From UHGV virus genome UHGV-1435313: a DNA stretch of 19,925 bases. One strand, written 5' to 3'. This DNA comes from a virus. The position numbers were made by a program, and so were the translations under genes. Position 1 is the first letter of the stretch. Each line of letters starts with the position of its first letter. This document shows positions 18,148 to 18,880 of this stretch, in pieces. Below the pieces are notes generated by a model. The model did no database searches. It was not told the origin of the DNA and saw only the letters and a program-made list of their open reading frames with translations.

Positions 18148-18636
18148 TTATTTCCCTTCTGTTTGCTTCCCAGCGGGGAACGAATCAACGCTGCCGCCGG
18201 AATAGCAGTCAAGATCAATTGCGACTTGTACCGCTTCTCTCGCATTTTTGCCACAGTGCATGGCAGTGCGAGCAATCAGCCCACCACTACCAATGGCGTA
18301 TGGTTCAACCTGTAGCGAAATACTCGCCCGCGTTTCGCCTTTCTCTTTTGAGATGATGTAAGCACGACCAGCACCGATGATAGCAAGCGCTGTGAAAGAG
18401 AATGTCGGGAGAAATTCTGATGCATACGTCAGGTTGTTCTTAAGAAGTTCCTGCAATTCCATCTCCGCGCCGCAATCACCAGAACAACCTAATGCAATCA
18501 CTTTACTGCCGCAAACCTCCCACCCAGATTCTGGCGGTGTGTAAATCTTTTGTTCTGTATACGAACACACAACATCACCAGATGATGCCTGGGTGTCAGA
18601 TGCCAGGGTCTTTCCATCCCATGCAATAGTGGTCAT
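18148..18636 (-). CDS. HslV / proteasome-beta-like N-terminal-nucleophile (Thr) hydrolase, standalone, 162 aa
   Basis: N-terminus MTTIAWDG (Thr exposed after Met removal, as in HslV MTTIVSV). ASDTQASSGDVV aligns to HslV AGDGQATLGNTV, with Asp and Lys at positions equivalent to HslV D17/K33; VIALGCSGDCGA resembles VIAGFAGGTADA; PYAIGSGG matches HslV LIAIGSGG. GGAG Shine-Dalgarno 9 nt upstream; 1-nt gap to the preceding ORF. Manual alignment only. Confidence 0.7.
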   Translation of the reverse strand: MTTIAWDGKTLASDTQASSGDVVCSYTEQKIYTPPESGWEVCGSKVIALGCSGDCGAEMELQELLKNNLTYASEFLPTFSFTALAIIGAGRAYIISKEKGETRASISLQVEPYAIGSGGLIARTAMHCGKNAREAVQVAIDLDCYSGGSVDSFPAGKQTEGK

Positions 18637-18637
18637 A

Positions 18638-18880
18638 TCATGCTCCGGCAGTGAACAGGTCTAACGCTTCCTTCGACTTACGCACCGCTTCGATAGTGCG
18701 GGTCGTGATATCCGAATTAGCGCCGCCTGACTGGAAGTGAATTTTGAATAGCTCAAGCTTCAACTCGTCAGTACCAATGAACTGAAATGCTTCTTCTGCG
18801 GCTGCGTTCTGGTTCATGACCAGTTTGTAAATCTCTAGCTGGAATTTCTGTTCTTCAGTCATGGAAATAATCTCTGCCAT
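18638..18880 (-). CDS. Hypothetical protein (80 aa), translationally coupled to the HslV-like gene
   Basis: ATG at 18878-18880 preceded by GGAG at 8 nt; non-hydrophobic, acidic, predicted helical; no recognisable motif. Confidence 0.5.
   Translation of the reverse strand: MAEIISMTEEQKFQLEIYKLVMNQNAAAEEAFQFIGTDELKLELFKIHFQSGGANSDITTRTIEAVRKSKEALDLFTAGA

Follow-up and report, generated by a model that had tools for sequence, protein, structure and literature searches.

Proteasome-type peptidases are central to regulated proteolysis. One of them, the β-proteobacterial proteasome homologue (BPH), is itself an ATPase-independent double ring, about 185-200 aa in length; it is chromosomal rather than phage-borne, with helix H2 retained and a pore loop that is both long and acidic. 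The phage proteasome-like peptidase (PPH), a group I homologue of about 140 aa that lies near BPH and HslV, was described in 2021; it keeps the catalytic triad and Gly47, has no propeptide and no S12/H5, and shares only with RPC the absence of H2 (PMC8665760). PPH is carried by Caudovirales and by prophages of their hosts (PMC8665760). Literature searches for functional work on phage HslV-like or PPH proteins returned annotation-level mentions only. GFP-tagged gp116 of Erwinia phage RAY, labelled "HslVU protease family", localises to the phage nucleus (bioRxiv 10.1101/2023.02.24.529968); if gp116 is a PPH, this localisation hints at DNA-associated substrates.

The gene considered here encodes a 162-aa protein and lies in virus genome UHGV-1435313 (19,925 nucleotides, the whole of which is called the window below). 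This ORF and an 80-aa ORF that precedes it had been picked out by a sequence-only reading as a peptidase and its partner, and both were found at exactly the coordinates given for them, on the minus strand (Table 1). The order of transcription on this strand is GIY-YIG/T5orf172 gene, 80-aa ORF, 162-aa ORF, terS and terL. The rest of the window holds a standard P22-like virion module (scaffold, gp4, gp10, an Sf6-type needle, gp14, gp7, gp20, an SLT-domain ejection protein and tailspike) and a tyrosine integrase beside a truncated tRNA gene. Since the integrase adjoins the 3' part of the tRNA gene, the window is one arm, the integrase-proximal one, of a P22-like prophage integrated at that gene. 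The 911-aa protein in the gp16 position, with a lytic transglycosylase domain at its N terminus, is an enzymatic variant of this ejection protein.

Table 1. Positions of the features discussed, in window coordinates
Feature	Position	Strand	Evidence or detail
tRNA gene, 3' part, cut at the window start	1-50	(+)	Rfam RF00005, 32.6 bits
Tyrosine integrase, after the tRNA part	179-1372	(+)	Arm-DNA-bind_3 + Phage_integrase
911-aa protein in gp16 (ejection protein) position	3706-6441	(-)	N-terminal SLT domain, E 3.3e-25
423-aa ORF	11998-13269		
P22-type scaffold gene	13281-14165		
732-aa ORF	14179-16377		
Large terminase TerL	16308-17720	(-)	Downstream of TerS
Small terminase TerS, Sf6 type, immediately downstream of the peptidase gene	17717-18142	(-)	Pfam PF20901 Sf6_terminase E 1.8e-44; PHROG 1482 E 1.1e-66
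Right cassette boundary	18143-18150	(-)	Peptidase TAA 18150-18148, 5 nt (TCAAT), TerS ATG at 18142
162-aa PPH-type proteasome-like N-terminal-threonine peptidase	18148-18636	(-)	ORF call; fold and profile evidence
Insertion in the 162-aa protein (residues 34-45)	18502-18537	(-)	
DUF2560/peptidase gene junction	18634-18646	(-)	GGAG 18646-18643, TGA 18640-18638, 1 nt, ATG 18636-18634
80-aa DUF2560 protein (HK620 hkbM / Sf6 gp67 equivalent)	18638-18880	(-)	Pfam PF10834, PHROG 571
Imperfect inverted repeat	18893-18940		19-nt arms, 74% complementary
174-aa GIY-YIG/T5orf172 (MUG113) protein	19208-19732	(-)	PHROG 4284
54-aa ORF	19729-19893		
Consensus terminator-like hairpin	19851-19871	(-)	9-bp stem, 6 GC pairs, T-run

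What kind of protein does the 162-aa ORF encode? PHROG 1040 ("peptidase HslV family") matches it with E 2.9e-37; a profile built from 61 homologues retrieves archaeal proteasome β (1.4e-8) and HslV (1.6e-8) from the PDB; hhalign pairs it with E. coli HslV (probability 96%, E 4e-9); and its AlphaFold2 model (pLDDT 95.2) is matched by Foldseek to proteasome β and to HslV, in both cases with probability 1.0. These results together establish an Ntn-hydrolase/proteasome fold, as had been proposed from the letters, and the resemblance is real, far beyond chance. The PDB similarity is detectable only with the family profile; a search with the single sequence gave at best E 0.94. Scans of the protein against Pfam returned no family at E<=1 and against PADLOC no match, and the sole NCBIfam match was TIGR03634 (archaeal proteasome β), at 15.2 bits versus a cutoff of 224. 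The protein, which is 21-26% identical to HslV and stays below the threshold of every curated HslV/proteasome model, is not a bona fide HslV.

The equivalents of HslV Thr1, Asp17 and Lys33, first assigned by eye, stand under proper alignments (family profile, hhalign): they are Thr2 (Thr1 of the mature protein), Asp14 and Lys30, conserved in 61/61, 60/61 and 61/61 sequences. Gly50 corresponds to the oxyanion-hole Gly47 of the proteasome, Gly53 aligns to HslV Gly48, Ser117 (in the AIGSGG motif) to proteasome Ser129 (HslV Ser124), and, in an alignment with M. jannaschii proteasome β, Asp143, Ser146 and Gly147 match Asp166, Ser169 and Gly170. Across the 61 aligned sequences, which reach down to about 30% identity, M1, T2, K30, G53, G116 and G118 are invariant, and D14 and D143 (60/61 each), G147 (59/61) and S117 (53/61, with Thr in 6 more) strongly conserved. 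HslV (ClpQ, the HslUV peptidase; MEROPS T1B) shares the Met-Thr-Thr start and aligns at Asp17, Lys33, Gly45 and the GSGG (Ser124) motif, but has a Cys where the phage protein has the proteasome-type Asp166 equivalent. Between the window's gene and its 91% identical copy in phage Dewey, dN/dS is 0.078, which shows purifying selection.

How would the nucleophile be freed? The Met-Thr-Thr start recurs in 59 of the 61 sequences, and the profile matches nearly all of the best 150 database representatives from residue 1 onwards; both fit a Thr nucleophile exposed by methionine removal alone, and the protein has no propeptide. In E. coli HslV the nucleophile is exposed simply by removal of the methionine, and the host methionine aminopeptidase would remove Met1 of the phage protein in the same way, leaving Thr1 in front. 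The catalytic apparatus is complete, conserved and, as far as residues can tell, apparently competent. This alone is no proof of activity because proteasome β and HslV subunits have hardly any activity in isolation, before assembly or activation; that the protein is a real peptidase is nevertheless a likely prospect.

The features of the published PPHs (representative WP_042125023.1) recur here one by one: a compact β-sandwich with Thr1, Asp17, Lys33 and Gly47 equivalents, no propeptide, no S12/H5 (the AlphaFold2 model ends in a strand at 150-154 and a disordered tail), no H2, carriage by Caudovirales and Proteobacteria prophages, and no partner ATPase. The 162-aa protein is thus very probably a PPH, an assignment made by these published features. 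It differs from the typical PPH in length, 162 versus about 140 aa, which a 12-residue insertion explains; lengths among the 61 aligned sequences range from 138 to 182 aa. The insertion, at residues 34-45, follows the strand of the Lys33 equivalent and contains a conserved Trp39. The protein also has six Cys residues in total and a Cys-rich GCSGDCG motif (residues 50-56) around the oxyanion glycine; motif and insertion are common to an enterobacterial PPH subclade that makes up 34 of the 61 sequences.

The family is large. Translated searches (tblastn) find it in 315 phage records, among them SPN3US-like, EL-like, Jedunavirus, Erwinia, Vibrio and Aeromonas phages; the family profile retrieves about 8600 clusters (50% identity) at E<=1e-10; and a structural search of BFVD gives 39 matches at E<=0.001, the named ones mostly uncharacterised proteins. 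The novelty that the sequence-only reading had implied was therefore overstated: PPH has been described since 2021 (PMC8665760), and both PHROGs and RefSeq already label its members "peptidase HslV family". The occurrence in P22-like phages (Lederbergvirus), which is rare, was not singled out in that description (PMC8665760).

If the protein resembles HslV, does it need HslU? The same reading had it dock onto host HslU, either as part of a redirected, hybrid ATP-dependent protease or as a decoy that titrates HslU, by a logic like that of T4 PinA, the phage inhibitor of host Lon. HslU is present in enterobacterial hosts, the phage protein resembles HslV in its N-terminal MTT and its GSGG motif, and the window offers no ATPase partner of its own: as had been noted, none of the large ORFs scanned is HslU-like AAA+, all being identifiable P22-like virion or integrase genes, while the 423-aa and 732-aa ORFs (Table 1), outside that scan, are placed like P22 coat/portal genes in related prophages. 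No hslU-like gene adjoins the peptidase gene, nor was one found beside its homologues at the phage and prophage loci examined, and hslU is likewise lacking from a jumbo phage that has HslV-like genes (PMC7823757).

The structure argues against such docking. In HslV, the pocket that receives the C-terminal tail of HslU is lined by Phe54, Phe57, Ala79/Lys80 and Gln114, of which Ala79/Lys80 are carried by the H2 segment (PMC6429459); this segment also holds the pore region around Leu88, whose mutation deregulates HslV (PMC8665760). In the AlphaFold2 model of the phage protein, H1 (57-66) leads through a 14-residue coil to a strand (81-88), with no helix at the place of H2; hhalign gives HslV about 12 extra residues in the H2 segment, and the linker from H1 to the strand is 12-20 aa across the family. 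Ala79/Lys80 and the pore residues around Leu88 are thus absent, and the remaining pocket residues are changed (Phe54 to Met59, Phe57 to Gln62 and Gln114 to Ser107; hhalign). The structure of L88A HslV (4g4e) is among the Foldseek matches of the model. Furthermore, the similarity of the protein to HslV is matched by its similarity to the HslU-independent BPH and to proteasome β, and the hosts of PPH-bearing phages span several phyla (PMC8665760). Likeness to PinA is purely conceptual, each being an accessory product of a phage that is directed at proteolysis in the host: PinA is unrelated and inhibits without being an enzyme, whereas the 162-aa protein keeps a full catalytic site under purifying selection, and nothing indicates that it binds a host ATPase. 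Canonical docking onto host HslU is accordingly disfavoured on the modelled structure and appears unlikely, and a role as HslU-bound hybrid or decoy is improbable. With the pore helix and half of the HslU-tail pocket gone, the protein would act as a threonine peptidase without HslU; judged from the absent helix and the non-conserved pocket residues, HslU independence merits moderate confidence.

Could a protein this small, stripped of H2, degrade proteins at all? Loss of H2 and small size might preclude ring assembly, and new quaternary structures are expected in such proteasome homologues (Fuchs et al., PMC8665760); add the 12-residue insertion of the enterobacterial subclade, with its conserved Trp, near the S4-S5 hairpin, and one may picture a monomer or small oligomer that works as a non-degradative Ntn enzyme, be it a connectase-like processing enzyme or ligase or a small-molecule amidase acting, for example, on a host signalling or immune metabolite. 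However, the full proteasome-type residue set is kept, including the Ser129, Asp166, Ser169 and Gly170 equivalents; H3 (119-127) and H4 (132-142), the helices of ring-ring contact, are retained in the model; and HslV, BPH and proteasome β are far more similar to the protein than are connectase or amidases. A non-degradative enzyme is for these reasons rather unlikely, and the threonine peptidase would instead self-assemble, probably through the retained H3 and H4.

The 80-aa protein had been cast as the coupled partner of the peptidase. It is acidic, as stated (pI 4.7), but it is a general P22-like protein: Pfam PF10834 (DUF2560) matches it with E 2.6e-43 (146.5 bits versus a cutoff of 25) over profile positions 1-72 of 72, and DUF2560 is annotated in HK620 (hkbM), Sf6 (gp67), epsilon34 and others, all of them without the peptidase. 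The DUF2560 region matches 168 phage records, only one of which, phage Dewey, also has the peptidase. The junction reads GGAG-CA-TGA-T-ATG, with the stop codon of the 80-aa ORF 1 nt before the peptidase ATG and the GGAG 6 nt upstream of it; HK620 and Sf6, however, show the same TGA-N-start junction between DUF2560 and the unrelated hkbN (GGAGCATGAT-GTG), and the coupling is therefore a property of the slot. Conversely, no DUF2560 lies beside PPH homologues at the loci examined in other phages, and an all-against-all BLASTP of the small ORFs flanking PPH genes in six phage contexts gave no match better than E 2. With no neighbour shared among PPH loci, a dedicated partner was rejected; DUF2560 is a resident P22-like gene that happens to be the upstream neighbour of the peptidase gene.

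The boundaries of the peptidase gene are sharp. Homology to HK620 and Sf6 ends exactly at its start codon (window GGAGCATGATATGACC versus HK620/Sf6 GGAGCATGATGTGAGC), and homology to HK620 picks up again at the TerS start, AATATGGCGACTGA; HK620 and Sf6 carry, after DUF2560, the unrelated 59-63-aa hkbN where the window has the peptidase. The prediction of an accessory slot was thus borne out: the gene sits in a variable slot between the lysis genes and terS. A survey of this locus found the peptidase gene in 1 of 168 phage records and in 10 of 5426 complete E. coli genomes, about 2700 of which match the surrounding region. The copy in strain X14-3 is 100% identical to the window's; Dewey, an isolated phage of E. 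coli K-12 (PMC12243541), has an extra 95-aa ORF between DUF2560 and the peptidase, and its sisters Huey and Louie are naturally free of the peptidase gene. Other lambdoid prophages contain more remote homologues (66% and 52% identity), flanked on one side by the lysis cassette or a KilA-N gene and on the other by a terS from another family, with no DUF2560 there; neighbours differ again in Erwinia phage Gungnir39, Jedunavirus and phage Ivi. These comparisons show a self-contained mobile cassette, which a minority of P22-like prophages carry between DUF2560 and terS in exact exchange for hkbN, and the peptidase gene travels alone.

Two observations concern the relatives. E. coli 0H24, 0H25 and 0H26 (NZ_CP081778, NZ_CP081694 and NZ_CP081786) have a PPH-carrying P22-like element in the chromosome as well as in separate "plasmid" records of 29-39 kb from the same assemblies, which suggests excised or circular phage genomes in these cultures. 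In a related prophage, RefSeq calls the Sf6-type small terminase (6968-7393, NZ_CP062855.1 IMP99_RS09115) a "ubiquitin carboxyl-hydrolase", almost certainly a misannotation.

How is the cassette expressed? No promoter-like site was found in 17600-19925, and an Rfam scan of the region found no RNA family. The terminator-like hairpin that had been placed in front of the pair is weak: an imperfect inverted repeat does lie immediately upstream of the DUF2560 start, but it is not a consensus terminator, and the sole consensus terminator-like hairpin of the region (19871-19851) is further upstream, before the GIY-YIG gene, and falls within the 54-aa ORF or at its end. A promoter/terminator framing of the gene pair was rejected on these grounds. 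About 80 nt upstream of DUF2560 are some 95% conserved across many P22-like phages (matches start at 18960), and the repeat may be a regulatory or processing element. Gene order and the absence of promoter-like sites suggest that the peptidase would be made from the late operon.

This bears on the idea that the gene is a moron, expressed from the prophage for lysogenic conversion or defence, which would protect the lysogen, for instance through breakdown of the proteins of a superinfecting phage. Its distribution is rare and patchy, and it belongs to a variable part of a temperate phage genome, beside a variable GIY-YIG/T5orf172 gene with a weak PADLOC match to PDC-S57 (E 8e-6). Yet the peptidase itself has no PADLOC match and is packed tightly within the late operon, where no promoter-like site is seen, and the abundance of its family in strictly virulent jumbo phages and in Jedunavirus argues for a role in lytic growth. 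Lysogenic conversion is, on this evidence, a poor bet. As for the neighbouring GIY-YIG gene, related prophages carry Rha or KilA-N genes at its position; it is therefore a second such variable moron between the lysis genes and terS, with PDC-S57 a candidate defence protein.

A proteolytic enzyme in a late region also calls to mind virion morphogenesis. Known prohead maturation proteases have a herpesvirus-protease or ClpP fold, and their genes lie between the portal and the scaffold/capsid genes; P22-like heads recycle their scaffold and are not known to use a protease. PPH genes are always in late regions, the Gungnir39 homologue lies between head-tail connector genes and the Jedunavirus homologue between tail modules, all of which would suit a protease of proheads or tails. 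Set against this, the 162-aa protein differs from the HK97 gp4, ClpP-like and T4 gp21 enzymes in its Ntn/proteasome fold and in the position of its gene, upstream of terS; gene positions vary between phages; and about 99% of related P22-like phages lack the peptidase gene yet form the same virion. With a P22-type scaffold encoded in the window, a prohead protease is not needed, and capsid maturation, as had been argued from the start, is no explanation. A morphogenetic protease is highly improbable.

Taken as a whole, the protein is best described, with odds somewhat better than even, as an HslU-independent, late-expressed and dispensable accessory PPH peptidase rather than an enzyme of virion maturation. 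Its accessory role, in fitness or against the host, would be aimed at cytoplasmic proteins of host or phage. A more specific proposal, tentative and on present evidence doubtful, makes PPH an ATPase-independent, virus-owned proteasome-type protease that cleaves a particular host target late in infection, such as a protein of immunity or the stress response; in a variant of this proposal, PPH would still engage host HslU, through a non-canonical interface.

What, then, does this locus add? The window's copy brings nothing categorically new to the family, but the result corrects the reading of the gene as an HslV that borrows host HslU with the help of an 80-aa adaptor. It also reveals a clean cassette in a model phage group (P22/Sf6/HK620-like), on which purifying selection is strong. 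Convenient and tractable systems for PPH function are offered by phage Dewey and by a few E. coli prophages, that of strain MS 115-1 among them. If PPH does cleave a specific host target, the P22-like copy would be the first genetically tractable system for finding it.
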